NCBI GenBank assembly: GCA_964588985.1
Contig: CAZPQW010000009.1
Span: 1 to 64,000 of the forward strand
From: an uncultured Solirubrobacteraceae bacterium
GTDB lineage: Bacteria > Actinomycetota > Thermoleophilia > Solirubrobacterales > Solirubrobacteraceae
Direction of reading: 5' to 3'
Length of the DNA stretch: 64,000 nt
Under the pieces are notes generated by a model. The model worked only from the letters and a program-made list of their open reading frames with translations. It was not told the DNA's origin and searched no databases. Of this stretch, positions 2,327-25,109 are shown one piece after another. Every line of letters begins with the position of its first letter. The first letter of the stretch is position 1. A program made the position numbers and the translations under genes.

Positions 2327-3675
2327 CGGGCGCCCACCACCGCGAGCGAGCGGTCGCGGTGCGCGATCGCGCCCGCCGCGAGCGTCAGCAGCACCCGGCC
2401 CTGCATCCGCCGTCCCGTGAAGCAGCAGTTCTCCGAGCGGCTCTCCCAGCCGTGCTCGCCCGCGATCCACTCCGCGTCGAGATCCACCAGCACGAGGTTC
2501 GCCGTCTCGCCGGTGGACAGGCGCGGCGTCGGCAGCTCGAACAGCTCGGCCCCCGCGCTCATCCGCTCCACCAGCACCGAGAGATCGAGAACCCCCGGAA
2601 GCACGAGGCCGGCGTACAGCGCCGCGAACGAGGTCTCGAGGCCCGTGGTGCCCATCGGCGCCTGCTCGAACGGCACCTCCTTCTCGTCGCGCGCGTGCGG
2701 CGCGTGGTCGGTCGCGACGCAGTCGATCGTCCCCTCGCGCAGCCCCGCGATCAGCGCCTGCCGGTCGGCCTCGGTGGTCAGCGGCGGGTGCATCTTCATG
2801 CGCGTGTCGAGGCCCCTCACGTCCGCGTCGGTGAGCAGCAGGTGGTGCGGGGAGACCTCCGCGCTCACGCGCCAGCCGCGCTGCTTCGCGTCGGCGACCG
2901 CGTCGAGCGACGCCGCGCAGCTGAGGTGCTGGAAGTGCACGCGCCCGTCCTCGTATCCGGCGAGCGCCGCGTCGCGAGCGACCATCGTGGACTCCGCGAT
3001 CGTCGGGATCCCCGCGATCCCGAGCGCCGCGCTGAGCGCGCCCTCGTGCATCGCGCCGCCGTTGGACAGCGTCGGGTCCTCCTCGTGCAGCGCGAGCACC
3101 CCGCCGCACAGCCGCTGGTACTGGAGCGCCTTGCGCAGCATCCCCGCGCTGCGCACCGGCTTGCCGTCGTCGCTGAAGCCGAGCGCGCCCTCCTGTCTGA
3201 GCTCCGCCATCTCGCTCAGCTGCTCTCCCTGCAGACCGCGCGTGATCGCCGGAAGGAAGCCCACCGGGACGCGCGCCTCGCGAGCGGCGGCGTCGCGCAG
3301 CGAGCGCAGCAGCGGCGCGGAGTCGAGCACGGGGTTGGTGTTCGGCATCGCGATCACGCCGCAGAAGCCGCCCGCCGCTGCCGCTCGCGTGCCCGTTTCG
3401 AGGTCCTCCTTGTGCTCCTGGCCGGGCGTGCGCAGGTGCACGTGCGGGTCGAAGAACGCCGGCAGCAGCCTCAGCCGACCGTGCCCCTCGATCAGCTCCT
3501 CGTCCGCGAACGCTTCGAGCGTCCCGGGCTCCGCCCACTCGGCGATGCTGCCGTCGCTCACGCGCACGTCGACGCGCGCGTCGTGACCCGTGCGCGGGTC
3601 GAGCGCGTGCACGTCGCGCAGCAACAGCGACGCCGCCGGCAGCGGCGCGCTCACGAGGGGCTCTGCGTGCCTCAC
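2323..3675 (-). CDS. pyrC: Dihydroorotase
   Basis: DPHVHLRTPG, MPNTNP, FSDDG, ATDHAPH; pyr operon context. Confidence 0.95.
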   Translation of the reverse strand: MRHAEPLVSAPLPAASLLLRDVHALDPRTGHDARVDVRVSDGSIAEWAEPGTLEAFADEELIEGHGRLRLLPAFFDPHVHLRTPGQEHKEDLETGTRAAAAGGFCGVIAMPNTNPVLDSAPLLRSLRDAAAREARVPVGFLPAITRGLQGEQLSEMAELRQEGALGFSDDGKPVRSAGMLRKALQYQRLCGGVLALHEEDPTLSNGGAMHEGALSAALGIAGIPTIAESTMVARDAALAGYEDGRVHFQHLSCAASLDAVADAKQRGWRVSAEVSPHHLLLTDADVRGLDTRMKMHPPLTTEADRQALIAGLREGTIDCVATDHAPHARDEKEVPFEQAPMGTTGLETSFAALYAGLVLPGVLDLSVLVERMSAGAELFELPTPRLSTGETANLVLVDLDAEWIAGEHGWESRSENCCFTGRRMQGRVLLTLAAGAIAHRDRSLAVVGAR

Positions 3676-4628
3676 GCCAGCTGGCCCTCGGTCACAGCGG
3701 CGGCGACATCCGTCTCAGCGCGCTCGGGTTGGCGCGCTCCGGCGAGCAGCTCGTAGAGGACCGCCATCCGCACCACCACGCCCGCCTCGACCTGTGCGGT
3801 GATCACAGCCTGCGGCGAGTCGACCACCTCGCCCGACAGCTCCACGCCGCGGTTCACCGGGCCGGGGTGCATCAGCACCTGGTGCGGGGACAGGCGCCGG
3901 CCGTTGAGCTGATACCACGCCGCGTACTCGCGCAGCGACGGCACCCACGTGTCGTTCATCCGCTCGCTCTGCATCCGCAGCGCGTACACCACGTCCGCCG
4001 TGTGGAGATCATCGAGCGTGAAGCGCACCTCACACCCTAAATCCTCGATCCCGCGCGGGATCAGCGTCGGCGGGCCCACGACGGTGACCTTCGCGCCCAT
4101 GCGCTGGAATGCGAGGATGTTCGACCGCGCGACGCGCGAGTGCGCGACGTCGCCCACGATCCAGATCGACGCGCCGTCGATCGCGCCCAGCCGGCGTTTC
4201 AGCGTGTAGACGTCCAGCAGCGCCTGCGTGGGGTGCTCGTGCTTGCCGTCGCCCGCGTTCACGATCGCCGCCGAGCACCATTTGGAGACCAGCTCGGAGG
4301 CTCCGACCCACGGGGTGCGCAGCACGATCGCGTCGGGCTTGTGCGCGGAGAGCGTCAGCACGGTGTCCTTCAGCGACTCGCCCTTCTCCACGCTCGACCC
4401 GCTCGCCGCGAAGTTCACCACGTCCGCCGACAGGCGCTTGGCGGCCAGCTCGAAGGAGCTGCGCGTGCGTGTCGAGGCCTCGTAGAAGAGGTTCAGCACC
4501 ATCCGCCCGCGCAGAGCGGGGACCTTCTTGATCTCGCGGTCGGACACCTCCGCGAAGCGCTCGGCCTGCGCCACGATCCGTTCGATCGCGTCGCGGTCGA
4601 GTTCCTCGATCGAGAGGAGATGCTTCAA
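3672..4628 (-). CDS. pyrB: Aspartate carbamoyltransferase catalytic subunit
   Basis: FYEASTRTRSSFE, NAGDGKHEHPTQ, MHPGPVNRGVE. Confidence 0.97.
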   Translation of the reverse strand: MKHLLSIEELDRDAIERIVAQAERFAEVSDREIKKVPALRGRMVLNLFYEASTRTRSSFELAAKRLSADVVNFAASGSSVEKGESLKDTVLTLSAHKPDAIVLRTPWVGASELVSKWCSAAIVNAGDGKHEHPTQALLDVYTLKRRLGAIDGASIWIVGDVAHSRVARSNILAFQRMGAKVTVVGPPTLIPRGIEDLGCEVRFTLDDLHTADVVYALRMQSERMNDTWVPSLREYAAWYQLNGRRLSPHQVLMHPGPVNRGVELSGEVVDSPQAVITAQVEAGVVVRMAVLYELLAGARQPERAETDVAAAVTEGQLA

Positions 4629-5200
4629 GCGGACGTCTCCACTGCGGCGGACGCTACCGGGGCACCGCCTGAGATGGCGACCTCGTCGACTCCGTCCAAC
4701 TCCTGCAGGCGGACGTGCACGTGCTCGCCCCTGGAGGTCGGCAGGTTCTTGCCGACATAGTCGGGGCGGATGGGAAGCTCGCGGTGGCCGCGATCGGCGA
4801 GCACCGCCAGCTGCACGCGCTCCGGGCGGCCGTAGTCGAACAGCGCCTCGATCGCCGCGCGCACCGTGCGCCCGGTGAACAGGACGTCGTCGACGATCAC
4901 CACCGTCAGTCCGTTGATGTCGAAGTCGATGTGCGAAGCGTGCACGACGGGCGCGTCCGGGCGGGTCGCGACATCGTCGCGGTAGAAGCCGATGTCGAGG
5001 TCGCCGAGCTTCACCTCGGTGTCGAGCAGATCCTCCAGCAACGCGTGCAGCCGCTGTGCGAGGAACGCGCCACGGCGATGGATGCCGACGAGGGCGGGAG
5101 CGGGATCGTGCGGGTTGCGCTCGACGATCTCGTGCGCGATGCGCGTCAGCGCTCGCCCAACTTCCTCCTCGTGGAGGACGACCTTCTCGTGGCTTTCCAT
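4625..5200 (-). CDS. pyrR: Pyrimidine operon regulator / uracil phosphoribosyltransferase
   Basis: RIAHEIVE, FYRDD, VDDVLFTGRT, DRGHRELPIRPDYVGKN. Confidence 0.97.
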   Translation of the reverse strand: MESHEKVVLHEEEVGRALTRIAHEIVERNPHDPAPALVGIHRRGAFLAQRLHALLEDLLDTEVKLGDLDIGFYRDDVATRPDAPVVHASHIDFDINGLTVVIVDDVLFTGRTVRAAIEALFDYGRPERVQLAVLADRGHRELPIRPDYVGKNLPTSRGEHVHVRLQELDGVDEVAISGGAPVASAAVETSA

Positions 5201-6248: not shown

Positions 6249-6355
6249 GGTCGCTACGGTAGCGGCGGCGCGTGGGGCGCGGCTGGCCGCAGTGAGTGGG
6301 CGCGGGTCGCGGCGCTAAGCTCCGAGGGCTGGATGTCGTCCATGAGACGTCATTT

Positions 6356-6428
6356 GCGCCCGTAGCTCAGTGGATAGAGTGCTTGCCTCCGGAGCAAGAA
6401 GTCGCTGGTTCGAATCCAGCCGGGCGCA
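6356..6428 (+). tRNA. tRNA-Arg (anticodon CCG), CCA not encoded
   Basis: Acceptor stem GCGCCCG/CGGGCGC, D-arm TAGCTCAGTGGATAGAG, anticodon stem CTTGC-CTCCGGA-GCAAG, T-arm GCTGG-TTCGAAT-CCAGC. Confidence 0.97.
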
Positions 6429-6488
6429 TGGTAGCCGTGAGCACAGCAGCAGCTGGATTGCGCGCGTCCGACGAATCGCTGGCTGGCC

Positions 6489-6743
6489 CTACGCTGGCAG
6501 CAGTTGGTCGAAAGACGTCGTCTCGAAGTAGCTGGAATGCGTGTGCTTGACCGTTTCCAGCGAGTCGGCGCTGAGCAGCACGACGTCGAGGTCCCGATGT
6601 CCACGGGCCTTCTGCTCGGCCTCTTGGTACGCGTGCTGCGCAGCCTCGTAGTCACCAAACTCGACGACCGTCGTCTTGCGCCGCGTCACGTCACGCGTCA
6701 CGAGAAAGTGCTTGATGTCGTCACCTGGGTTCATCTTGATCAT
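6489..6743 (-). CDS. Putative antitoxin resembling the CapRel/PhRel antitoxin (pseudo-zinc-finger) module
   Basis: 84 aa with ATGA overlap to the upstream SAS. The C-terminal A..AY..AE....DVVLLSADSLETVKHTHSSYF resembles the DxVLVxxxSxxxLRxAYPNYF tail of fused CapRel. Confidence 0.7.
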   Translation of the reverse strand: MIKMNPGDDIKHFLVTRDVTRRKTTVVEFGDYEAAQHAYQEAEQKARGHRDLDVVLLSADSLETVKHTHSSYFETTSFDQLLPA

Positions 6744-7502
6744 CCCTTGTGAGGGTCTCGTGTCGCCAATGATGGCAGGCTCTTCAAGCTCGACCCTAGA
6801 TCGTCAGCTGAGACCTCGCCGCGGTCGAAGCCGGCGATCAGCTCGGCCATCGTCAGAAAGAGACTGTGGAAGCTCTCGTCGCCAGCGCCGAACTTGAGAT
6901 CGACGCCGAATTGTCTGCCGGTCTCCTCGACGGTGTTCGCCCATATGTCCTGCCCGATTGTCCGAAGCTGGACCTCTATCGTGTAGTCCATGCGTCTGAC
7001 GATCAGGTGAAGTGCTCTGTAGCCACTGCTCTTGGGCTCGGCGATGTAGTCCCTCTCCCTGACGATCGTCCAAGACTTCAACAGCCGACGCCTGACGAGA
7101 TACACGTGCCGTTGAGTAGGAAGCATCGCGCGAACGCCACCGATGTCCTGCATCTGCGTGACTTTCCCGCTCTCGCGCGCCAGCTTTCCGATCAGCGTGT
7201 CGAGGCGCTTCAAGCGCTGCGTAACCTCGATACGGTCGCGCACGCGAGCATCGGCACGATCGACGTGATGGCGAAGATTCGCAGCCACCGCTGACAGCGG
7301 GCGTGCGTGCAGGCTGCGCCACCACGTCAGCGCCTCCCACGCTTCGTCGAGCTTCTGCTCATCGAACCCAGCGACAGCCCTCTTGGCGTCCTGCCTCTGC
7401 ATTCGTTCGCGGAGGTCGAGCAGCAGGACGCCTGCTCGATTGACTTCGCCCTTTGTGGAACGGCGCTGCTATTTGCGGAGAGGCTGGACGATGCGCGGCC
7501 AT
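6740..7502 (-). CDS. RelA/SpoT-domain small alarmone synthetase (CapRel/PhRel-like toxSAS), with an apparent +1 frameshift near 7457
   Basis: WRSLHARPL, QRLKR, MQDIGGVR, DYIAEPKSSGYRALH, EVQLRT..QDIWA. The open frame has an ATG at 7402, but the motif TKGEVNRAG lies in frame upstream of it; the ATG at 7502 is one base out of frame. Confidence 0.85.
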
Positions 7503-7540
7503 CTCAGGGTTGTAGCGAACAACGGCGACGGGACTCAGGA

Positions 7541-8656
7541 CTACCGCAGAAGCGCAGCCTCCCCGACCAGCACGCCATCCTGCGGGTGCCCCGGTACCGA
7601 CAGTCCAGTACTCCCACCCCTGATGCAGGGCGGCGTGAGCGGGAGCGGTGACTTCGCGGGAAGCCGATCGACCACCTGGCTCTGGGAGTAGGCCGCCCAC
7701 GAGAGCACGCTTCCGATGGGAGCGTGAACCCCCCGCGCGCGACCGATCAGCACATCCTGTTCGGCAGCCAGCGCGCTGGTGGTGGCCGAGAAGATCAGCT
7801 CATGCCTTACCCCGTGGCTGTCGAACGCAAGCCCAACCCCCTGGCGTCCGAGCTTGTCAGTGACGGTCCCGAGTGATCTGACCCCCCGCAGACCGGCAGC
7901 AGCTCGATACAGCGCAGCACGCAGAGCCGGCGGCGCGTCGGTCTCGCGCAGCAGATCGCCGACCTGGGTGAACGCCTCCCCCGGTCCAGGCTGTCCGCCC
8001 TCGACCTTGCCGGTCAGCAGGCGCGCGCGCAGCCTCGCCGGATCTCTCGGTAGGCGGCCGAGCGGGATCGGGTCGATCGACAGGCAGCCCGGCGCCGCCC
8101 AGGTGTTGCTCACGCCCGCCGGCTGCGCCGGGACGTCCTTGCACGCTTTGGCTTCGCTGGGTGAGAGGAAGTGCGCCGGCCCGTCCGTCTCGCGGAACAA
8201 CCCTTCGCCGTTGGCTGCGACCCAGTTCTGCCGGTACTGCTCGAAGACCGTCTGGCAGTAGACGCCGCCGGGCAAGGAAGTGTCCGACCCGGTCAGCGAA
8301 TGCGACGCCGTGTACAGGTACTGCCCCGGTCCGGGGACCGCCGCCGGCTGGGCGGCGGCGACGCGTGCGAGTCGCTGGAGCAGCGGTCCGGCGGCGAGCG
8401 CAGGCTGCGGGGTCGACCCTGAGCGCACGGACGCTCCGAGGGCGATCGCAACCACTGCGAGCACCGCCGCGAGCGCGGCGCTGGCGAGCAGGCGGCGCCT
8501 CGATCGGACGCCTCCTCGATGGACGACGCCACCCGGCGCAAGCGTCTGCCGGCTCATCGCACGATCGAGCGACTGCCGCGCCGCTGCACGCGCCTGCTCG
8601 TTCGAGGGTGCAGGTTCGCTGCGATGACGCCGCAGCAGGTCGAGCTCGTCAGTCAT
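7541..8656 (-). CDS. CU044_5270-like membrane-anchored protein (probable anti-sigma partner)
   Basis: MTDELDLLR...ARAAARQSL, one TM helix, PGPGQYLY, LPRDPARLR, PPALRAALYRAAA, DKLGRQG. Overlaps the ECF sigma gene. Confidence 0.8.
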   Translation of the reverse strand: MTDELDLLRRHRSEPAPSNEQARAAARQSLDRAMSRQTLAPGGVVHRGGVRSRRRLLASAALAAVLAVVAIALGASVRSGSTPQPALAAGPLLQRLARVAAAQPAAVPGPGQYLYTASHSLTGSDTSLPGGVYCQTVFEQYRQNWVAANGEGLFRETDGPAHFLSPSEAKACKDVPAQPAGVSNTWAAPGCLSIDPIPLGRLPRDPARLRARLLTGKVEGGQPGPGEAFTQVGDLLRETDAPPALRAALYRAAAGLRGVRSLGTVTDKLGRQGVGLAFDSHGVRHELIFSATTSALAAEQDVLIGRARGVHAPIGSVLSWAAYSQSQVVDRLPAKSPLPLTPPCIRGGSTGLSVPGHPQDGVLVGEAALLR

Positions 8657-9239
8657 CTGTGCTCCTCGTGTTGAGTCCATGGGCGCGCGGCGCGTCGAGC
8701 CGCGATCTGAGGTGCGCTCGCGCTCGGGCGAGACGAGAGCGCACGGTGCCGATCGGGATGTCCAGCGCCTCGGCGATCTCCTCGTAGGAGAGCTCCTCCC
8801 AGGCGTGGAGCAGCAGCACGTCGCGCTGCGCCGAGTCGAGGGTCACCAACGCCTCGGCAAGCCGGTCCGTGTCCAGCCCCTCGCTCGCGCCGTCGCTGTC
8901 GGCTGGGCGTTCGGCGTTCAGCAGCGCGAGCGCTCCCTGCTCGCGGCGCGCGACGCGATGACGCTCGTGCAGGAGGTTGGTGGCGATACCCAGCAGCCAC
9001 GGTCGCGCGCTCGTGCTGTCTGGCCGGAAGCTGCGGCGGCGCTCGAACGCGATCACGAACGTAGTCGACGCGAGGTCGTCGGCCTGCGCGCCGGGAACTC
9101 GCCGGGCGAGGTAGCGATGGACCGCTGTGTAGTGGCGGTCGAAGATCTCCGCGAAGCCCTCGGGGCGCTCGAGCGAGCCCGCGATGGTCGCGCTGTCAGA
9201 GGTGGCCTCGGGGGCGAGTAGCGAGCGACCCATCACCAC
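8649..9239 (-). CDS. ECF RNA polymerase sigma-70 factor
   Basis: FAEIFDRH...VHRYLARR, ARPWLLGIATN, LSYEEIAEALDIPIGTVRSRLARAR. Confidence 0.93.
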   Translation of the reverse strand: MVMGRSLLAPEATSDSATIAGSLERPEGFAEIFDRHYTAVHRYLARRVPGAQADDLASTTFVIAFERRRSFRPDSTSARPWLLGIATNLLHERHRVARREQGALALLNAERPADSDGASEGLDTDRLAEALVTLDSAQRDVLLLHAWEELSYEEIAEALDIPIGTVRSRLARARAHLRSRLDAPRAHGLNTRSTDD

Positions 9240-9242
9240 CTA

Positions 9243-9283
9243 TTGTCGGTTGGCGCTCGAAAAGTTCCATTTGACGAGCGCCA
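9243..9283 (-). promoter_or_regulatory. Probable autoregulatory ECF promoter embedded in a 9-bp inverted repeat
   Basis: Minus strand GGAAC-N15-CGACAA directly upstream of the sigma gene. Inverted repeat TGGCGCTCG (9251-9259) / CGAGCGCCA (9275-9283). Confidence 0.55.
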
Positions 9284-9309
9284 CCCTGCTTCTCGAGCTG
9301 CCGGCGCGT

Positions 9310-12300
9310 CTACGACACCGTGATCGTGAACGTCGCGCTGGCCGCCTCACGCGCCCGCCCGTGGCGGTCGCTGACGGTCACCGTGAACGTGAACGTTCCG
9401 CCGTGGGGGTATTTGAGCACCGACACTTTCCCGTGCAGGAGGCCCGTCGAACCCAGGCTCAGTCCCTTCGGCAGACCGCCGGCCGTCGCTTTCCATTTCG
9501 GCGGAGCCATCCCGCCCGCCGCGGTCAGCTGGTAGCTGTACGGGAGACGCAGCGTGGCGTTCGGCACCGAGGTCGTCGTCACGTGCAGCCCGAGCACGGT
9601 CAGCGTGAATTGCTGGACGCTGTCGGACCCGACGCCGTTGTGCGCGGTCAGGGTGATCGGGAACGTGCCGGTCTGGGTGGGCGTGCCTGCAAGCGCTCCG
9701 GTGGTCGAGTCGAACGTTACACCCGCCGGCAACGCTCCAGACTCGCTCAGCGTCGGCGTCGGCGTGCCCGTCGCGGTGACCGTGAACGTTCCGGCGACAC
9801 CGCGGGTAAACGTCGTGCTCGCCTGCGACGTGACCGCCGCCGCCGAGTCGACCGTCAGCGTGAAGCTCTGGACCGAGAAGCCGATCCCGTTGGACGCGGT
9901 GAAGGAGATCGGGTACACCCCGTCCTGGGTCGGTGTGCCGGACAGGACGCCCGTGGCGGCGTCGAACGTCACGCCTTCCGGAAGCGTCCCCGACTCGCCG
10001 AGCGTCGGCGCTGGCGTACCGGAGGCCGTGACCGTGAAGCTGTCGACCGTGCCCTCGACGAACGTCACGCTCGAGCCCGAGGTGATCGCGGGCGCCGAGT
10101 CCACCGTCAGGGTGAAGCTCTGGACCGCATCCGAGCCGACGCCGTTGGAGGCGGTGAAGGTGATCGGGTAGACGCCGTCCTGCGTGGGGGTTCCCGACAG
10201 AACGCCAGTGGCGGAGTCGAACGTCACGCCTTCAGGCAGCGCGCCAGACTCGCTCAAGGACGGTGCGGGCGTACCGGTCGCGTTGACCGTGAAGCTGCCT
10301 GCGGTGCCCTCCGAGAACGTTTCGCTGCTGGGCGAGACGATCGTGGGCGCCGAGTCGACCGTCAGCGTGAAGCTCTGCACCGCTTCCGCGCCGACCCCGT
10401 TGGCGGCCGAGAAGGTGATGTCGAAGACGCCGTCCTGGGTGGGCGTGCCGGACAGGACACCCGTGGCGACGTTGAACGTCACACCTTCCGGAAGCGTCCC
10501 CGACTCGCTCAGCGTCGGCGCGGGCGTTCCGGTCGCCGTGACCGTGAAGCTGCCCGCGGTCCCCTCGGTGAACGTGGCGCTCGAGCCCGACGTGATTGCC
10601 GGCGCTTCGGTGACCTGCAGCGTGGCTTTGCCGGTCGACGAGGCGTAGTTGGAGTCGCCGCTGTACGTACCCGTCAGCTGGTCCGTGCCGGCCGCGCCGT
10701 GATGCGTGACACAGGTGGCGGTGTCGGGCGATCCGCCGCTCAGGGGCTGCGCGCCGCAGCCCGCGATCGGCCCGGAGCTGTCGGCGAAGGCCACCGTCCC
10801 GGTCGGGGTTCCCGTGCCGGGGGCGACCGGGGCCACCGTGGCGGTGTAGGTGACGGGTGCTCCCACTTCGCCGGTGCCGCCGTCGGAGGAGCCGAGCGAC
10901 GTGGTGCTCGACACGCCGGGCGCCGTCGCGGAACTCAGGTGCATGGTGAGGATGTTGCGGTAGATCGCCGGGTCCTTCGGGCCAATCGTGTACAGAGCCG
11001 AGGGGTTCGTGCCGAGCACCGTCGCGACCGTGGTGACCGGTTTCGGCAGGCGGTAGCCGCTGAAGACCATCGTCAGCGAGCCGTCGGGGTTCTGCACCAC
11101 CGACGGGCCATAGGCGCGGCCGGAGTAGTAGCCGCTCACGCCGAGCGGCGCGTCGACGCCTTTGGCGAGTTCTTCGTCCTGCTTCGCGGAGGCCGAGAAC
11201 GCGTATTCGGTGCTGAGCACGACCTTCGGCACCGACCATTCCCTGCCGTTGGTCGAGGAGGTGTAGAAGATCTGGTTGAACGCGTCGCTGTCGCCGTCGC
11301 TCGCCCACGCGCCCGAGAGGAACATGCCGTAGCTGCCGTCGGGGTTCGTGACGATCGTCCCGCGCGAGCCGATGAAGCGCAGCTCGGTCGTGTCGGGGCT
11401 GCCCGAGGGCAGGCTCGTCGGGCCCGTGCTCGACGGGCTCGTCTGCTGGAAGGGGTTCGACAGGTCGTTGTAGGAGCCGGTGTTGTTGCCGGTTCCGGAG
11501 GTCGAGCCGCTGATCGCGCCGAGGTCGGTGAAGTCGATCCCGTTTTCGGTGTACGCGGCGCGCAGGACGGTGTAGTCCTCATTGTTGGAGAACAGCTTCT
11601 GCGGGCCCTTGGAGGACGAGTTCTTGCCCTCGCCGATCTTTTCCAGCGACGAGTACGGCACGACCGCCGAGTTCGGTCCGCCGACCCAGTTGCCTTCCTT
11701 GACCGATCCCGTGCCTCCACTGCAGCCGGTGAGGTCGTAGCTGCCGGCGGGCACGCCCGTCTGCGTGGCTGGAGTCACACCGTTGCAAGTGACTTCCTGG
11801 ATCGGTTTGCCGACTTCGGTGCCGAGGTAGATCTTGAACGAGCCGGTCGTGGGCAGCGGCTCGCTGGGGTGCACCGACGGCGTGTAGACGATCGTCGCGG
11901 CGGGCAGCGCGACTGTCCCGGCTTTGTAGGTCGAGCCGCTCACCGAGCCGTTGGTGGTGCCGACGATGAAGTAGCCGAGGACCTTCTGCGTGTAGAGGAC
12001 GACCGTCGAGCCGGAGGGGGCGCCGGGGTAGCTCGGCAGGGTGCCGACGATCCCGTCGGGGGACTTCAGTCCGGTCGTGACCTGCGCGTGCGGCGGCAGG
12101 ATCGGGTCGCTCGTGATCGCGTCGCCCTGGTGGACGGTCAGCGGCCCGCCGCTCGCGGTCGTGCAGAACTCGATTTTGTTCGTCGGGTTGGCGTTCGACT
12201 GCGAGCAGTACACGGTCGCCCCGTCGATGTACACGCGGTTGGGCGCGTCTTCGTTGAGGATGAACGTCGTAAGCGGCGAGACGACCGGGTTCGCGTTGAG

Positions 12301-13431
12301 GATGCTCACCTTTTCCAGCCCGCCTTCGCCGGTGGTTTTGTTCGGCCCGGCGGGGATCGTGTAGGTCAGGCCCGTGCCGGGGTTGGCCGTGGCGATCACC
12401 TGGACGAGGTCGTCTCCGGCGGCGACGGTCAGGGGCGCGCCGCCCGCGACGGTGCATCCGGTCAGCGCGAGCGGGGACGTGCTCGTGCCGGTGCAGGTGA
12501 CGATCGATTTGGACGGCGAGGCTGCGTTGTAGTCCTCGTAGGGGCCGGCGACGATGTGCTCGGGCGAGCCTTCGGTGCCGAGCGTGGACACGGGGATGCT
12601 CACGCCGCCGCTCGTCGGGACGCTGGTTTCTCCGGTCGCGTACGTGTTGGGATCGAAGCCGACCGATTCGGTTGCCGGCAGCGCCGCGAGCGGGTTGGTC
12701 GCGGCCGGTTCGACGTTGTGGACGAGCAGGCCCACGCCTTCGTAGTCGCCCGCCGGACGGTTGAGCGTGTAGAGCTTGGCGCTGCCGCCGATCGTGGCGA
12801 CGTAGGGGTGTCCCTGGCCGTCGTCGTTGGTGTCGGCGGTCGGGCAATAGCCTTTGTTCTGCCCGAGCGACTCGCCCGTGGTGATCCAGGTTTTGCCGTT
12901 GTCGGTGGAGCGCGCGACGGTAATCGCCTCTTCGGCATCCTTCGGCCGGTAGTCGAAGTAGCCGGTCAGCGAGCCGTCGGCGTTGCGGACGATGTCGGGG
13001 AAGTAGTAGGGCGCGAACGGCAGCGTGCTGCCGGCCGGCTGGGACACGGGAGACCCGGTCTCGGGGTTCGCGCCGAGGCTCGAGCAGTAGCCGTCGAGCG
13101 GGCCGGGCGTACCGGCGACGCCGCTCGGGTAGGGCACCGAGCCGGTGCCCGGGTAGACCGCGACGTTCGGCTCGCTCACACCGCCCAGCAGAGTTTCGCT
13201 GCCGCCCTGCGTGAATGCGGGCAAGAGCAGCGAGTTGGAGTATTCGCCGCCGGCGGAGGGGTCTCCCTGCGAGGTGTTCCACGGTCCGCCCGCTACGCCG
13301 TCCACGATCGGGGTTTCGGGTGTGTACGCCGTGCCTGAAGCGAGCGCTGCCGAGGACGAGAGCGCGAGGACGCCGACGATCGCTGCGAGCAGCGCGAGAA
13401 CTGCGTGGAGCGGACGGGTGGTGCGGCGCAC
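9310..13431 (-). CDS. Large secreted/surface protein: Asp-box beta-propeller-like region plus a C-terminal Ig-like repeat stalk
   Basis: Signal peptide (...SSSAALA), Asp-boxes ARSTDNGKTW and TSSTNGREW, a Big_3-like domain (PTGTVAF...YSGDSNY), and He_PIG-like repeats (LPEGVTFD..TGVLSGTPT). Confidence 0.85.
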   Translation of the reverse strand: MRRTTRPLHAVLALLAAIVGVLALSSSAALASGTAYTPETPIVDGVAGGPWNTSQGDPSAGGEYSNSLLLPAFTQGGSETLLGGVSEPNVAVYPGTGSVPYPSGVAGTPGPLDGYCSSLGANPETGSPVSQPAGSTLPFAPYYFPDIVRNADGSLTGYFDYRPKDAEEAITVARSTDNGKTWITTGESLGQNKGYCPTADTNDDGQGHPYVATIGGSAKLYTLNRPAGDYEGVGLLVHNVEPAATNPLAALPATESVGFDPNTYATGETSVPTSGGVSIPVSTLGTEGSPEHIVAGPYEDYNAASPSKSIVTCTGTSTSPLALTGCTVAGGAPLTVAAGDDLVQVIATANPGTGLTYTIPAGPNKTTGEGGLEKVSILNANPVVSPLTTFILNEDAPNRVYIDGATVYCSQSNANPTNKIEFCTTASGGPLTVHQGDAITSDPILPPHAQVTTGLKSPDGIVGTLPSYPGAPSGSTVVLYTQKVLGYFIVGTTNGSVSGSTYKAGTVALPAATIVYTPSVHPSEPLPTTGSFKIYLGTEVGKPIQEVTCNGVTPATQTGVPAGSYDLTGCSGGTGSVKEGNWVGGPNSAVVPYSSLEKIGEGKNSSSKGPQKLFSNNEDYTVLRAAYTENGIDFTDLGAISGSTSGTGNNTGSYNDLSNPFQQTSPSSTGPTSLPSGSPDTTELRFIGSRGTIVTNPDGSYGMFLSGAWASDGDSDAFNQIFYTSSTNGREWSVPKVVLSTEYAFSASAKQDEELAKGVDAPLGVSGYYSGRAYGPSVVQNPDGSLTMVFSGYRLPKPVTTVATVLGTNPSALYTIGPKDPAIYRNILTMHLSSATAPGVSSTTSLGSSDGGTGEVGAPVTYTATVAPVAPGTGTPTGTVAFADSSGPIAGCGAQPLSGGSPDTATCVTHHGAAGTDQLTGTYSGDSNYASSTGKATLQVTEAPAITSGSSATFTEGTAGSFTVTATGTPAPTLSESGTLPEGVTFNVATGVLSGTPTQDGVFDITFSAANGVGAEAVQSFTLTVDSAPTIVSPSSETFSEGTAGSFTVNATGTPAPSLSESGALPEGVTFDSATGVLSGTPTQDGVYPITFTASNGVGSDAVQSFTLTVDSAPAITSGSSVTFVEGTVDSFTVTASGTPAPTLGESGTLPEGVTFDAATGVLSGTPTQDGVYPISFTASNGIGFSVQSFTLTVDSAAAVTSQASTTFTRGVAGTFTVTATGTPTPTLSESGALPAGVTFDSTTGALAGTPTQTGTFPITLTAHNGVGSDSVQQFTLTVLGLHVTTTSVPNATLRLPYSYQLTAAGGMAPPKWKATAGGLPKGLSLGSTGLLHGKVSVLKYPHGGTFTFTVTVSDRHGRAREAASATFTITVS
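9595..10605 (-). repeat. Four tandem ~255-bp intragenic Ig-like (He_PIG) repeats
   Basis: Repeated APAITS..S.TF.EGT..SFTVTATGTPAPTLSESG.LPEGVTF..ATGVLSGTPTQDG...QSFTLTVDS unit. Confidence 0.9.
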
Positions 13432-19795: not shown

Positions 19796-20070
19796 CAGCC
19801 GCCCGCTACGGCCGGCAGGATCGTCAGCTCGGCCCCGTCGGCGACGGGTGTGGCGAGGCCGTCGAGGAAGCGGATGTCTTCGCCGGCGAGGTACACGTTG
19901 ACGAAGCGCCGCAGCGAGCCGTCGTCGTCGGCGATGCGCGCGCGCAGCTCGCCGTAGCGGGCGAACAGGCCGTCGAGGACCTCCTGCACGGTAGCGCCGT
20001 CGAGTTTGGTCTCCGCGTCGCCGTCGGCTGCCGCGCGCAACTGCGTGGGGATCTTGACGGTGACCGACAT
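19792..20070 (-). CDS. ThiS/MoaD/CysO-like sulfur carrier ending in GG-C
   Basis: MSVTVKIPTQLR...LRRFVNVY..GEDIRFLDGL.T...ILPAVAGGC; translationally coupled to the thrC-like gene. Confidence 0.92.
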   Translation of the reverse strand: MSVTVKIPTQLRAAADGDAETKLDGATVQEVLDGLFARYGELRARIADDDGSLRRFVNVYLAGEDIRFLDGLATPVADGAELTILPAVAGGC

Positions 20071-21341
20071 CAGACGGCCACCTTCTCCGCGAAGCCGGCC
20101 TCGAACGCCTCGATGCTCGGGGAGATCGTGGTCGTCTCGAACGTGCCGCGGACCGCGTCGAGCGTCTTCAGGCCCTCCCCGGTGATCACGAGCACCACGC
20201 GCTCGTCCGGGTCGATGTCGCCGCGCGCCGCGAGCTTCGCGAGCACCGCTGTCGTGACGCCGCCCGCGGTCTCGGTGAAGACCCCGGTGGTCTCCGCCAG
20301 CAGGCGAATGCCGGCGCGGATCTCGTCGTCGCTGACCGCGTCGACCGAGCCGCCGCTGCGGCGCGCGAGGTCGAGCGCGTAGGGGCCGTCGGCGGGGTTG
20401 CCGATCGCGAGCGACTTGGCGATCGTGTTCGGCTTCACCGGCCTGCAGACCTCCTGGCCGGCCGCGAACGCGCCCGCCACCGGCGAGCAGCCCTCGGCCT
20501 GCGCGCCGTTCATGCGCGGCAGCGGGCGGGCGGGATTCTCTATCAAGCCCAGCTCGGTCCATTCCTCGAAGCCCTTGGCGATTTTCGTGAACAGCGAGCC
20601 GGAGGCGACCGGCACGATGCAGCGGTCGGGGAGCTCCCAGCCGAGCTGCTCGGCGATCTCGAACGCGAGCGTCTTGGATCCCTCGGCGTAGTAGGGGCGC
20701 AGGTTGATGTTCACGAACGCCCAGTCGCGCTCCGCGCACAGCTCGGTGCACAGGCGGTTGACGTCATCGTAGTTGCCCTCCACGCCCACCAGGTTCGTGC
20801 CGTAGATGCCCGTCGCGAGGATCTTCTGCTCCTCCAGGTCTGAGGGGATGAACACGTAGGAGTCCATGCCCAGCGCGGCGCCGTGAGCGGCGACCGAGTT
20901 CGCGAGGTTGCCGGTGGACGCGCACGCGATCGTCTCGAAGCCGAGCTCGCGCGCCCGCGTCACGGCGACCGACACGACGCGGTCCTTGAAGGAGTGCGTG
21001 GGGTTGGCGGCGTCGTTCTTGACCCACACCTCGCGCAGGCCGAGGTGCTCGGCGAGCCTGTCAGCGCGGATCAGCGGCGTGCAGCCCGCTGGCAGCCCCA
21101 CGCGTGAGGCCAGACGCCCGGACGGCCCGGGAGGCCCACCGGCGAGCGGCAGGAAGTCGGCGTAGCGCCAGATGTTCTGCGGTCCGCCCTGGATGCGGCG
21201 GCGCAGCTCGCCGATGTCGCCGCTGGTCTGGCTGTGGTCGTAGACGACCTCCAGCGGACCGAAGCACTGCTCGCAGACGTACAGCGCCTCCAGCGGGTAC
21301 TGGGATTTGCACTCCTTGCACTGCAGATGACTGACAGCCAT
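20070..21341 (-). CDS. Threonine synthase-like PLP enzyme (probable O-phosphohomoserine sulfhydrylase)
   Basis: N-terminal CxxC...CxxC, NPTHSFKDR (PLP Lys), CASTGN, EGSKT, ITGEGLK; SAM riboswitch upstream. Confidence 0.88.
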   Translation of the reverse strand: MAVSHLQCKECKSQYPLEALYVCEQCFGPLEVVYDHSQTSGDIGELRRRIQGGPQNIWRYADFLPLAGGPPGPSGRLASRVGLPAGCTPLIRADRLAEHLGLREVWVKNDAANPTHSFKDRVVSVAVTRARELGFETIACASTGNLANSVAAHGAALGMDSYVFIPSDLEEQKILATGIYGTNLVGVEGNYDDVNRLCTELCAERDWAFVNINLRPYYAEGSKTLAFEIAEQLGWELPDRCIVPVASGSLFTKIAKGFEEWTELGLIENPARPLPRMNGAQAEGCSPVAGAFAAGQEVCRPVKPNTIAKSLAIGNPADGPYALDLARRSGGSVDAVSDDEIRAGIRLLAETTGVFTETAGGVTTAVLAKLAARGDIDPDERVVLVITGEGLKTLDAVRGTFETTTISPSIEAFEAGFAEKVAV

Positions 21342-21400
21342 TGGGGCTCCTTCGCTCGAGTCTTTGCCGTCACGTGTGGCAAAGAGCGCGAAGCTCCCCC

Positions 21401-21494
21401 ACACATCTCTCTGGAATTGGCACCTTCCCGCTGTGACTTGACGGTGGTTGCCGGGGTTTCGTAGGGCCTAGTCCCTCCACCCCTCTGGATGTGT
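21401..21494 (-). ncRNA. SAM-I (S-box) riboswitch
   Basis: Minus strand ACACATCCAGAGGGGTGGAGGGACTAGGCCCTACGAAACCCCGGCAACC...GGTGCCAATTCC..AGATGTGT, with P1 ACACATC/GATGTGT. Confidence 0.93.
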
Positions 21495-21603
21495 CCAGCT
21501 ATGTCTGTCGAGCATTGTATCGGACGAACGGCGGAAAGTCATGACGCATTTGCGATTCGTCGTGGACCGGTAACGCTAGCGCCACGCTGGTGTAGGCCCA
21601 CTG

Positions 21604-22635: not shown

Positions 22636-25068
22636 TCAGGCGGACACGCCGCCGGCGGCGCCGGGCGTGACGCGGTAGGCGTCGAACACCGAGTCGGTGT
22701 TGCGCAGGCGGTTGATCGCACCCTTGAGCGCGTGGGTGTCGGCCACCTCGACCACGAAGCGGTTCTTGACCATCGGCGGCATCGATAGGCAGCGCGCTTC
22801 CATGATGTTCGCGCCGGACTCCGAGAACGCGCGCGAGAGATCCTCGAGCAGACGGTGGCGGTCCCACGCGTCGATCTGGATCTCCACGATGAAGCCGGTC
22901 GACTGGTCGCCTTCCCAGGCGACGTTCGCGAAGCGCTCGGGGCTCTTGCGCAGCAGCGTCGTGTTGGGGCAGTCCTCGCGATGGATCGTGATGCCGCGCC
23001 CGAGGGAGATGTAGCCGACGATCTCATCGCCCGGCACAGGCCGGCAGCACTTGGCGAGTCGCAGCATCACGTCCTCGACGCCTTCAACGCGGATGCCGTA
23101 CTGGCCTGAGGACTTGGTCGGCCGCCGGCGGGTGCGCCCGACGCGCAGCAGTTCGGAGGCGCTGTCGTCGCCGTCGGCGGACTCGCCCTGCTTCAGGCGC
23201 TGCATCACCTTGTTGACGACGAGCTTCGGCGAGATCTTGGCGGCGCCCATCGCGATGTAGAAATCGTCCGCCTTGCGGTAGCCGACCTCGCGGATCACGT
23301 CCGCGAGCAGCGCCGAGCCGGTGATCTTCTGCGCGGGCAGGCCCTGTTTGCGCAGATGCTCCTGCAGCAGCTCGCGACCGGTGTGCTCGGTGTCCTGGCG
23401 GGACTCGGCCTTGAACCAGGCCTTGATCTTGTTGCGCGCGCGGGTCGTCTTGACCGTCGCGAGCCAGTCACGCGAGGGGCCGCGGTCGCGCTTGGCGGTG
23501 AGTATCTCGACGATGTCCCCGGACTGCAGCTCATAGTGCAGCGGCACGATTTTCCCGTTCACGCGCGCGCCCACGCAGCGGTGCCCGATCTCGGTGTGCA
23601 CCTCGTAGGCGAAGTCCAGCGGCGTCGCGCCGAGCGCGAGCGACTTGACTTCGCCCTTGGGCGTGAACACGAACACCTCCTCTTCGAAGAGGTCGGTGCG
23701 CAGCGTCTCCATGAACTCGCCGGGGTCGGAGAGCTCTTTCTGCCAGTCGAGCATCGAGCGCAGCCACTTCAGCTTCGCGTCCTCCCCAGCGGCCGGCCAG
23801 CTCGTCGTGCGGCGCTGGGGCGCGCCGTCGGCCTCGCCGGCGCCGGGCTGCTTGTAGAGCCAGTGCGCCGCGACGCCGAACTCCGCCATTTCGTGCATCT
23901 CCCGTGTGCGGATCTGGATCTCCAGCGGCCGCCCCTCGGGCCCGATGATCGTCGTGTGCAGCGACTGGTACATGTTGAACTTCGGGACTGAGATGAAGTC
24001 CTTGAAGCGGCCGGGGAGCGGCTTCCACAGCGAGTGGATCACGCCGACGGTGCCGTAGCAGTCCTTCACCGAGTCGACGATCACGCGCATCGCGGTGAGG
24101 TCGTAGATCTCGTTGAACTCGCGGCCCTTCTTGGTCATCTTCGAGTAGATCGAGTAGAAGTGCTTCGCGCGGCCCGCGATCTCGGCCTGCACGCCGACCT
24201 TGGCGAGCTCCTCGCGCAGGTAGTCGCCGGCCTCGGTGACGTAGCTCTCGCGCTCCTCGCGCTGTTGGGCGACGAGGCCCTTGATCTCCTGGTACTTGCG
24301 CGGGTGCAGCGTGGCGAACGCGAGGTCCTCGAGCTCCCACTTGATCGCGTGGATTCCCAGGCGGTGAGCGAGCGGCGCGTAGATGTCGAGCGTCTCGCGC
24401 GCCTTGTCCATCTGCTTCTGCTTGGGCATCGCATCGATCGTGCGCATGTTGTGCAGGCGGTCGGCGAGCTTGATTAGGATGACCCGCACGTCGGTGGCCA
24501 TCGCGACCATCATCTTGCGGTAGTTGTTCGCCTGCGCCTCGTCGCGCGACTGGAACGTGATGCCCGTGAGCTTCGTCACGCCGTCGACGATCGCCGCGAT
24601 TTCCTCGCCGAAGCGCTCGCGCACCTCATCGAGCGAGGCGGAGGTGTCCTCGACGGTGTCGTGCAGCAGCGCCGCGCACAGCGTCTCTGTGTCGAGGCGC
24701 ATCCCCGCGCAGATCTGCGCCACGCCGACCGGGTGCACGATGAAGTCCTCGCCGGACTTGCGTCGCTGGTCCGCGTGGTGCTCGCACGCGAACACGAACG
24801 CGTCCTTCACACGATCACGGTCGATCTCCAGCGACGAGTCGGCGGCGTGCTCGGAGATGATCGCGAACAGGTCCCCGAGCAGCCGGCGCTCGGATGCGCT
24901 CAGCTTCACCGCCGTCCCCGCGTCGGCGGTCACGTGGGTGGGTGCCTTCCCGTTTGACCCCGAGGTTGGGCTCATCGCGGCGCTCGGCGCACCGGCCAGC
25001 TCCGCGACGCCCGCCTCGCGGGGGGCCTCGGTGGCCTGGGACCTGTTGGGTTCGTCGACGATGGCCAT
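22636..25068 (-). CDS. rel: Bifunctional (p)ppGpp synthetase/hydrolase
   Basis: RKSGEDFIVHP, LLHDTVED, KLADRLHNMRT, GRAKH, YQSLHT, EIQIRT, TGS and ACT domains. Confidence 0.96.
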   Translation of the reverse strand: MAIVDEPNRSQATEAPREAGVAELAGAPSAAMSPTSGSNGKAPTHVTADAGTAVKLSASERRLLGDLFAIISEHAADSSLEIDRDRVKDAFVFACEHHADQRRKSGEDFIVHPVGVAQICAGMRLDTETLCAALLHDTVEDTSASLDEVRERFGEEIAAIVDGVTKLTGITFQSRDEAQANNYRKMMVAMATDVRVILIKLADRLHNMRTIDAMPKQKQMDKARETLDIYAPLAHRLGIHAIKWELEDLAFATLHPRKYQEIKGLVAQQREERESYVTEAGDYLREELAKVGVQAEIAGRAKHFYSIYSKMTKKGREFNEIYDLTAMRVIVDSVKDCYGTVGVIHSLWKPLPGRFKDFISVPKFNMYQSLHTTIIGPEGRPLEIQIRTREMHEMAEFGVAAHWLYKQPGAGEADGAPQRRTTSWPAAGEDAKLKWLRSMLDWQKELSDPGEFMETLRTDLFEEEVFVFTPKGEVKSLALGATPLDFAYEVHTEIGHRCVGARVNGKIVPLHYELQSGDIVEILTAKRDRGPSRDWLATVKTTRARNKIKAWFKAESRQDTEHTGRELLQEHLRKQGLPAQKITGSALLADVIREVGYRKADDFYIAMGAAKISPKLVVNKVMQRLKQGESADGDDSASELLRVGRTRRRPTKSSGQYGIRVEGVEDVMLRLAKCCRPVPGDEIVGYISLGRGITIHREDCPNTTLLRKSPERFANVAWEGDQSTGFIVEIQIDAWDRHRLLEDLSRAFSESGANIMEARCLSMPPMVKNRFVVEVADTHALKGAINRLRNTDSVFDAYRVTPGAAGGVSA

Positions 25069-25109
25069 GATCAAAGGGTAGGGGACGGCCCAACCGGATT
25101 GAAGGGCGT

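Follow-up and report, generated by a model that had tools for sequence, protein, structure and literature searches.

Toxin-antitoxin (TA) systems of the CapRel and PhRel groups, in which a toxSAS enzyme is paired with an antitoxin, are the closest described counterparts of the gene pair reported here. The pair occupies positions 6489-7502, on the minus strand, of a 64,000-nt stretch of DNA from an uncultured Solirubrobacteraceae bacterium (contig CAZPQW010000009.1, positions 1 to 64,000); below, "the window" denotes that whole stretch. According to published accounts, PhRel and CapRel share a homologous antitoxin, and one pair of each has been validated (PMC7229694). Unfused pairs are usual for PhRel and for CapRel in Actinobacteria (PMC9712102, Extended Data Fig. 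1 legend). toxSAS enzymes that target tRNA are blocked at the ATP donor site, and those that make (pp)pApp at the acceptor site (PMC11782079).

The fused system CapRel-SJ46 (structures 7ztb and 9erv), an anti-phage system that senses capsid protein, differs from the pair in the window in being a single polypeptide of 373 aa that is neutralised in cis, and its trigger has been identified. R79 and R116 of this protein are adenine-coordinating arginines, and Y155, which corresponds to Y143 of Phrann gp29, is the essential G-loop tyrosine (PMC9712102, PMC7229694). Neutralisation depends on a YXXY motif, the first plug residue thus being Tyr; the turn that carries it sits between R79 and R116 and plugs them (PMC9712102).

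The locus in the window is an ordinary two-gene member of this known family, with an intact antitoxin gene and a toxin gene that carries a one-base frameshift. We hold with good confidence that the sequence evidence places it as a two-gene TA system of the CapRel/PhRel family with a mechanism like that of its homologues; this confidence concerns the family and the mechanism, the functional state of the present copy being a separate matter. The first-pass annotation of this DNA had proposed a toxSAS-antitoxin pair of the CapRel/PhRel kind, and the identification held up: CapRel comes first in PDB searches by both sequence and fold, and the small protein is homologous to Phrann gp30. Its description of the pair as "split" was dropped, as the unfused form is the usual one in both groups. 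The main features are as follows.

6740..7402, minus strand: toxSAS (toxSYNTH) open reading frame (ORF) as now read, 220 aa from an internal ATG
6489..6743, minus strand: antitoxin gene of the ATcapRel/ATphRel type with a predicted pseudo-zinc-finger fold, 84 aa from ATG 6743
6525..6539, minus strand: codons for H69-S-S-Y72-F73, counterpart of the neutralising motif Y352-x-x-Y355 of CapRel

As in a type II TA operon, the two genes are adjacent and co-oriented with the toxin first, and the toxin stop and the ATG of the small gene share 4 bp as ATGA. Both ORFs were found as first annotated, the 4-bp overlap being valid for the longest ORF only, because in databases the small protein's homologues are mostly annotated as starting at the second ATG (6734; 81-82 aa). 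In the window this alternative start gives 81 aa and has an AAGGGA box 8 nt upstream.

Toxin

The 220-aa protein matches the Pfam family RelA_SpoT (PF04607) at E 3.3e-19. Its R63, R91 and Y128 align to R79, R116 and Y155 of CapRel-SJ46, and Y128 also to Y143 of Phrann, in an alignment made with the translated SJ46 and Phrann genes; CapRel residue numbering was verified on the translated SJ46 gene. The earlier reading of this protein as a small alarmone synthetase (SAS) with all synthetase motifs is consistent with these results. The best PDB relatives by sequence are CapRel-SJ46 chains 9erv_A and 7ztb_A (E 3.3e-15, residues 9-201), followed by RelP (1.7e-12) and RelQ/YjbM (7e-12). An AlphaFold model (mean predicted local distance difference test, pLDDT, 84) gave 75 PDB fold matches at E <= 0.001, of which the Foldseek top three are again CapRel chains (E 1.8e-12 to 4.8e-12, TMq 0.68-0.71), then RelP/RelQ. 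CapRel-SJ46, about 30% identical to its window counterpart, is therefore the solved protein to which the toxin is closest in both sequence and fold.

The PADLOC profile PDC-S33, a candidate-system profile of 349 positions, is matched by CapRel-SJ46 over its full length (7e-87). Here the toxin covers profile positions 26-217 (E 7e-45, 152 bits) and the small protein positions 263-331 (E 4e-9). The same split pattern is seen with phrog_4773, of which the two proteins cover separate parts, the small protein taking positions 269-339 (E 5.7e-7). When 50,697 phage records were searched with the toxin by tblastn, 37 records matched, with SJ46 and Phrann gp29 among the best.

A maximum-likelihood toxin tree was built from 26 rows, comprising 22 from Solirubrobacterales, CapRel-SJ46 residues 1-270, Phrann gp29 and a WST1 homologue, with the synthetase part of the window's own long Rel as root. 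All Solirubrobacterales rows form a clade with CapRel-SJ46 (95/96), and the PhRel proteins of Phrann and WST1 fall outside it. Taken together, sequence and model point to the larger protein being a toxSAS of the CapRel/PhRel clade.

Among validated systems, the unfused CapRel:ATcapRel pair of Actinobacteria (Mycobacterium sp. AB308; PMC7229694, PMC9712102), compared here by its description, belongs to the same phylum and likewise has two genes with the toxin first. The window toxin resembles unfused CapRel in scoring 152-155 bits on the CapRel-type PDC-S33 profile, versus 82 bits for Phrann PhRel. It differs from the AB308 pair in its host, which is a member of the Solirubrobacterales (class Thermoleophilia) and not Mycobacterium, and in its broken toxin frame. 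The PhRel:ATphRel pair of Mycobacterium phage Phrann (gp29:gp30) has two genes in the same order, and its toxin is 34% identical to that of the window over 163 aligned positions, with the G-loop tyrosine kept (Y128 in the window, Y143 in Phrann). However, the Phrann pair resides on a temperate phage and gp29, at 292 aa, has a longer C-terminal tail, whereas that of the window lies on a chromosome, without phage genes in its vicinity.

Antitoxin and plug motif

The small protein was assigned to no Pfam or NCBIfam family. DUF1330 was rejected, since its Pfam score of 16.8 bits lies under the cutoff of 23, and the best PDB match, a cytidylyltransferase (E 0.05-0.5), is regarded as chance. Apart from the profile matches given above, the protein matches phrog_22117, a phage family of 66 aa (E 4.5e-7). 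With Phrann gp30 it shares 39% identity over 61 aa, at an E of 3e-9 that is valid for a single pairwise comparison only, and both end in ...SLET[VL]K.THS.YF; PDC-S33 is matched by the window antitoxin but not by gp30. When a profile of 104 antitoxin sequences was aligned by hhalign with residues 309-368 of CapRel-SJ46 (E 5.8e-4), THSSYF fell on AYPNYF, so that H69 corresponds to CapRel Y352 and Y72 to Y355. By these sequence comparisons, the small protein is homologous both to Phrann gp30 and to the antitoxin domain at the CapRel C-terminus.

A pseudo-zinc-finger domain (pseudo-ZFD) had been anticipated for the small protein by the first-pass annotation. The model of the 84-aa protein (pLDDT 72.8) has strands at residues 11-18 and 23-29, a helix at 32-46 and a strand at 52-59, followed by short helices; this beta-beta-alpha-beta order is the topology described for the pseudo-ZFD (PMC9712102). 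In the Foldseek search with this model the CapRel chains 7ztb_A, 7ztb_B and 9erv_A ranked first (E 0.25-0.54), and 8pu2 (ATfaRel2) tenth (TMq 0.52), the E values of these matches spanning 0.25-0.71. As no match reaches E 0.001, the fold evidence is suggestive rather than significant.

The HSSYF motif comprises residues 69-73 of the small protein (window 6539..6525), and its counterpart in CapRel-SJ46 is YPNYF at 352-356. Phrann gp30 has THSRYF, with an identical reading in the WST1 homologue. Within 31 close homologues T68, H69, S71, Y72 and F73 are invariant; in the 104-sequence alignment, which extends to identities of about 33%, only the columns of T68 and H69 are invariant, with Y72 and F73 kept by 90% or more of the sequences. 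A profile search of 1.84 billion protein representatives returned 863 proteins at E <= 0.001, from which 147 new representatives (P0245-P0391) were tallied. HxxYF is present in 116 of these, and the others are mostly truncated at the C-terminus or frameshifted, or carry variants such as HSSWF and HSNFW. A literal YXXY is absent from the window antitoxin, where the second Tyr (Y72) is present and the first is replaced by H69, and it is absent from the validated gp30 too. Thus, histidine at the first plug position appears from these sequences to be the norm for free-standing antitoxins of the CapRel/PhRel family.

The first-pass annotation had singled out HSSYF in place of YPNYF. The residues are as it gave them, but they do not distinguish this antitoxin, given THSRYF in gp30 and the prevalence of HxxYF in the tally. 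Its further suggestion, that HSSYF might imply a different trigger, was not upheld: the phage specificity of CapRel-SJ46 maps to parts of the pseudo-ZFD other than the YXXY motif (PMC9712102), and the motif, being the active-site plug and not the trigger-sensing surface, is uninformative on the trigger. No mention of "HXXY" or "histidine" was found in PMC11782079.

Three entries from the protein search call for comment. P0245 (316 aa) only looks like a fusion: it is a toxin with two frameshifts whose reading runs on into the antitoxin. P0261 (220 aa) is no genuine fusion either; in it a tyrosine-integrase-like C-terminus is read into an antitoxin, which hints that some copies of the pair adjoin an integrase. 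The match of P0333 (2131 aa, 13 stretches), a coiled-coil repeat, is spurious.

Predicted interface and mechanism

Co-folding, which the first-pass annotation had put forward as a check, supported the pairing: the 220-aa toxin and the small protein scored 0.87, and the best of 3 controls 0.28. The pass mark is reached by 58 of 80 solved complexes and by 2 of 110 mismatched pairs. Because complexes of the CapRel/PhRel-type family have already been solved, the pass may reflect likeness to these and not independent evidence. The runs share at least 79% of contacts, with a partner pLDDT of at least 79. Confident contacts are predicted for residues 57-64 and 91-93 of the toxin with 53-60 and 63-71 of the antitoxin, the contacted toxin strands being those that carry R63 and R91; T68 contacts R91, residue 93 and T61, and H69 contacts T61. 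The small protein is thus predicted to bind its cognate toxin at the ATP donor site.

This predicted interface matches the published binding modes of CapRel and of ATfaRel2/FaRel2. In the FaRel2:ATfaRel2 pair (Coprobacillus sp. D7), of which both the antitoxin (8pu2) and the complex have been solved, strand beta3 of the antitoxin pairs with beta1 of the toxin (PMC11782079), and the model of the window pair similarly has an antitoxin strand on toxin beta1 and an aromatic turn at two arginines. FaRel2 belongs, however, to another toxSAS subfamily, and ATfaRel2 is described as a circularly permuted, distant homologue; a sequence-level match of the window antitoxin to ATfaRel2 was not found in the PDB searches.

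A mechanism can be drawn from the published systems (PMC7229694, PMC9712102, PMC11782079, bioRxiv 10.1101/2024.07.05.602228). The toxin would be a toxSYNTH pyrophosphokinase and the small protein a pseudo-zinc-finger antitoxin acting in trans. The third antitoxin strand (53-60) would be added to toxin strand beta1 (57-64), and the turn T68-H69-S-S-Y72-F73 would be pushed between the adenine-coordinating R63 and R91, blocking the ATP donor site. If the pair behaves like Phrann gp29/gp30 and CapRel-SJ46, removal of the antitoxin by a phage protein would release the toxin and abort infection, and an anti-phage function of the pair may be supposed on the same grounds.

Several results weigh against this assignment and mechanism. 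The substrate, toxicity, neutralisation and phage trigger of this copy we infer by analogy with relatives. On the toxin side, NCBIfam matches are all far below their cutoffs, the best being YjbM (48.7 bits), and the tree has three references only and very long branches for CapRel and the outgroup, for which reason we prefer the label "CapRel/PhRel clade, leaning to unfused CapRel". On the antitoxin side, the hhalign probability against CapRel-SJ46 is only 29%, Foldseek gave 0 matches at E <= 0.001, PDB searches with the single sequence and with profiles of 31 and 104 rows returned no CapRel or ATfaRel2 chain, and tblastn against the 50,697 phage records gave nothing at E <= 1. Y72 is absent from the confidently touching residues of the co-fold. 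In 6300-9400 neither an att-like copy of the tRNA 3' end nor a long island-bounding repeat was found, the only repeats being short and at chance level, and no phage or integrase gene was seen flanking the pair in a Pfam scan of the window. Finally, the break in the toxin frame means that the module might fail to operate in the way set out above.

The interrupted toxin frame

Intact toxin homologues are 251-256 aa long and have the N-terminus [M/V]AAHRP.SSQIAAPFTKGEVNRAGVLLLDLRERM... In the window the corresponding residues lie in two frames: that of ATG 7502 encodes MAAHRPASPQIAAPF, and the toxin frame encodes TKGEVNRAGVLLLDLRERMQRQ...

7359..7502, minus strand: ORF of 47 aa that opens at ATG 7502, the ancestral start; residues 1-15 are MAAHRPASPQIAAPF and the remainder is out-of-frame read-through
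7457..7458, minus strand: single extra C, a +1 frameshift after ancestral codon 15
7403..7468, minus strand: start-less in-frame extension of the toxin frame, encoding ...TKGEVNRAGVLLLDLRER, a conserved N-terminal segment of the family

The extra C, at about 7457-7458, is absent in 7/7 close loci in a DNA alignment, the window having GTTCCACAAAG at the frameshift site versus GTT-CAC[A/G]AAG in the relatives. Programmed frameshifting was rejected since none of these seven relatives has the extra base. Translation from 7502 stops after 47 aa, at 7359, and only the internal ATG 7402, which has no Shine-Dalgarno-like box upstream, can yield toxin. An outer coordinate of 7502 and a "frame-repaired SAS" in the first-pass annotation agree with this picture, in which ATG 7502 opens the family N-terminus and the extra C shifts the frame; the broken frame had been hinted at there without being weighed.

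In this copy the conserved N-terminal segment [S/T]K..h.[R/K]AG is not joined in frame to the catalytic core: its version here, TKGEVNRAG, is encoded in 7403-7468 and severed from ATG 7502 by the extra C. The segment is also found in CapRel-SJ46 (YSKSQIEKAA), in Phrann gp29 (WSKGELKRLG) and in related loci, and reading the stop-free interval 6743-7468 extends the PDC-S33 match from profile position 26 to 8. In FaRel2 a basic patch (K28, R29) recognises the tRNA acceptor stem (bioRxiv 10.1101/2024.07.05.602228). At best, a 220-aa protein without the TKGEVNRAG segment can be produced, and we regard the chances that the toxin of this copy is disabled or weakened as evenly balanced.

It is rather unlikely, in our estimate, that the extra C is an assembly or sequencing error, in which case the true gene would be an intact toxSAS of about 253 aa starting at ATG 7502 and the module fully active. 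An error would fit the state of the remaining sequence, as both frame pieces still encode the family N-terminus almost perfectly and the rest of the toxin is undecayed: at columns conserved in at least 95% of sequences it deviates once (G139D), a count equal to the median over 120 family members, and the antitoxin has 0 deviations at conserved columns. Single frameshifts also occur in several related loci from metagenome-assembled genomes (MAGs), and some of these might be assembly errors. The insertion, however, lies in a two-base run and not in a long homopolymer, and the 220-aa form stands in the database as called. In a Pfam scan of 46 other window ORFs no gene was seen to be split between frames, the large multi-domain Rel, SecDF and RuvB all being read through, and for this reason a real mutation is mildly favoured over poor assembly. 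Loss of the toxin does happen, moreover, as shown by real toxin deletions in relatives (L062, L064, L065, L070, L080).

Related loci

A scan of a genome collection gave 202 confirmed related stretches, from which 80 loci were kept, all of them from Solirubrobacterales or Actinomycetota MAGs. An antitoxin homologue follows the toxin in 79 of the 80 loci, and the remaining one (L071) ends at a contig edge. The adjacency of toxin and antitoxin is not due to chance. The toxin is clearly disrupted in 13 loci, by frameshifts or internal stops (L021, L023, L027, L039, L060, L066, L067, L072) or by deletions or truncations (the five loci named above); L073 is a probable further case, L025 is ambiguous, and in the other 65 loci the toxin is apparently whole. 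The antitoxin is uninterrupted in 79/79 loci, with HSSYF in 77 and HASYF in 2. From gene length about 4.3 broken antitoxins were expected and 0 observed (Poisson P = 0.014), an asymmetry that is indicative only, because the loci are related and MAG-derived.

The same counts, 13 disrupted toxins (plus the probable and the ambiguous case) beside uniformly whole antitoxins with H[S/A]SYF and a shortfall of broken ones, would also be expected if the toxin were dead and the intact antitoxin retained for a role of its own, for instance to neutralise the toxSAS of phages or mobile elements (anti-addiction or immunity). We consider this improbable. Ordinary TA decay predicts the same asymmetry, loss of the antitoxin being lethal while the toxin works; the loci, being related, are not independent events; and type II toxSAS antitoxins protected only against cognate toxins in the cross-tests reported in PMC7229694 (Table 1). 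There is likewise little likelihood that the copy in the window represents such an "antitoxin-kept" state, with its His-type plug protein under selection of its own, perhaps as a shield from toxSAS that phages or mobile elements bring in, or as a decoy for phage proteins that set off such systems.

The CapRel/PhRel-type pair is poorer in GC than the flanking DNA (0.639 vs 0.676) in 63 of 67 full-length loci. A tRNA gene is present somewhere in 42/80 loci and lies within 600 nt of the pair in 20/80, with ten anticodon types represented. tRNA-Arg(CCG) is found downstream of the pair in 17/80 loci, at distances of 19 nt to several kb and in 9 of them within 600 nt. The pair is followed by RNase Z, pyrR and pyrB in 15 loci and by RNase Z only in a further 5, and on its other side the DNA varies between loci. 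A set of 35 ORFs drawn from 11 loci included two transposases, a reverse transcriptase, a PIN toxin, a HicB-like protein, a type IV coupling protein, an SRAP peptidase and metabolic genes. For example, in L007 a reverse transcriptase (RVT_1; 3669-5162, plus strand) lies upstream of the toxSAS pair and a HicB-like UPF0150 protein (6942-7307, plus strand) between antitoxin and tRNA-Arg, and in L008 a PIN-domain toxin (4077-4451, plus strand) lies beside the pair. Two copies of the pair occur on separate contigs of one MAG in two cases, L017 with L028 (MFD00964.bin.1.307) and L029 with L073 (clean274); these copies are 50-75% identical to the window toxin.

Genomic neighbourhood

Around the pair the window contains the following features.

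6355..6429, plus strand: tRNA-Arg (anticodon CCG), found by ARAGORN; Rfam tRNA 71.7 bits
7541-8680, minus strand: 379-aa protein
8649-9239, minus strand: extracytoplasmic function (ECF) sigma factor (Sigma70_r2/r4)
9310-13431, minus strand: 1373-aa secreted-looking protein with five He_PIG Ig-like repeats and a Big_3_5 domain
20070-21404, minus strand: pyridoxal phosphate (PLP)-dependent enzyme
21400-21495, minus strand: S-adenosylmethionine (SAM) riboswitch (Rfam RF00162, 75.2 bits), directly upstream of the PLP-dependent enzyme gene
22636-25074, minus strand: full-length long RelA/SpoT homologue of 812 aa with HD_4, RelA_SpoT, TGS, AH/RIS and ACT domains

The tRNA-Arg(CCG) and antitoxin genes converge, with 59 nt between the 3' end of the tRNA and the stop codon of the antitoxin. 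GC content is 0.613 in 6489-7502 versus 0.691 in the remaining window, dipping to 0.60-0.63 over 6250-7500 against about 0.68-0.74 on either side, so that the lower-GC patch by tRNA-Arg noted in the first-pass annotation was recovered. Scans of 6300-7800 for promoters and terminators gave 0 of each. On its other side the pair is bordered by the 379-aa gene, itself downstream of the ECF sigma factor gene, so that it is wedged between this gene and the tRNA. The pair appears to be a small mobile-looking module at a variable tRNA-linked spot, with no recognisable prophage or island.

The ECF sigma factor gene and the 379-aa gene overlap by 32 nt. The 379-aa protein matches nothing in Pfam and is hydrophobic over a stretch around residue 75, and the two look like a sigma/anti-sigma pair. 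As the stop of the 379-aa gene is only 38 nt from the ancestral toxSAS start, the toxSAS pair may be read through from the sigma operon. The same two genes are present in L032, 4.3 kb from the toxSAS of that locus. A long ORF (9184-13338, plus strand) opposite the 1373-aa gene is an antisense artefact of high GC content.

The long Rel, a housekeeping alarmone enzyme, is encoded 15 kb from the toxSAS pair and gives a weak tblastn match to the toxSAS (23% identity, E 1.4e-5). That the synthetase of the pair is itself a nucleotide-alarmone enzyme, either a RelQ/RelP-like (p)ppGpp housekeeper or a FaRel-like (pp)pApp toxin, and not a tRNA modifier, is very unlikely: RelP and RelQ structures come just behind CapRel in the searches by sequence and by fold, and YjbM is the best, sub-threshold, NCBIfam match, but the window already encodes the full-length long Rel, the toxin groups with CapRel in the tree and scores 152 bits on PDC-S33 against 48.7 bits for YjbM, and a pseudo-ZFD partner that blocks the donor site is tied to tRNA-targeting toxSAS (PMC11782079).

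Significance

The Solirubrobacterales are a soil lineage seen almost only through metagenome assemblies. A search of the full-text literature found no paper joining Solirubrobacter with toxin-antitoxin and alarmone synthetase, and three supplementary files of PMC7229694 list Solirubrobacter and Thermoleophilum solely under long Rel; the lineage is understudied in this respect, as first annotated. The architecture, the antitoxin type and the His-type plug of the CapRel/PhRel-type pair are all already represented by validated systems, and the finding opens no long-standing question. It extends a well-studied, defence-linked TA family into the Solirubrobacterales. Because the first plug position is mostly His in free-standing antitoxins, including Phrann gp30, mutational work on the Tyr-Tyr plug may not carry over directly to these His-type antitoxins. 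Loss of the toxin with retention of the antitoxin is one pattern worth following up, and its repeated occurrence provides a small natural data set on the decay of such modules.

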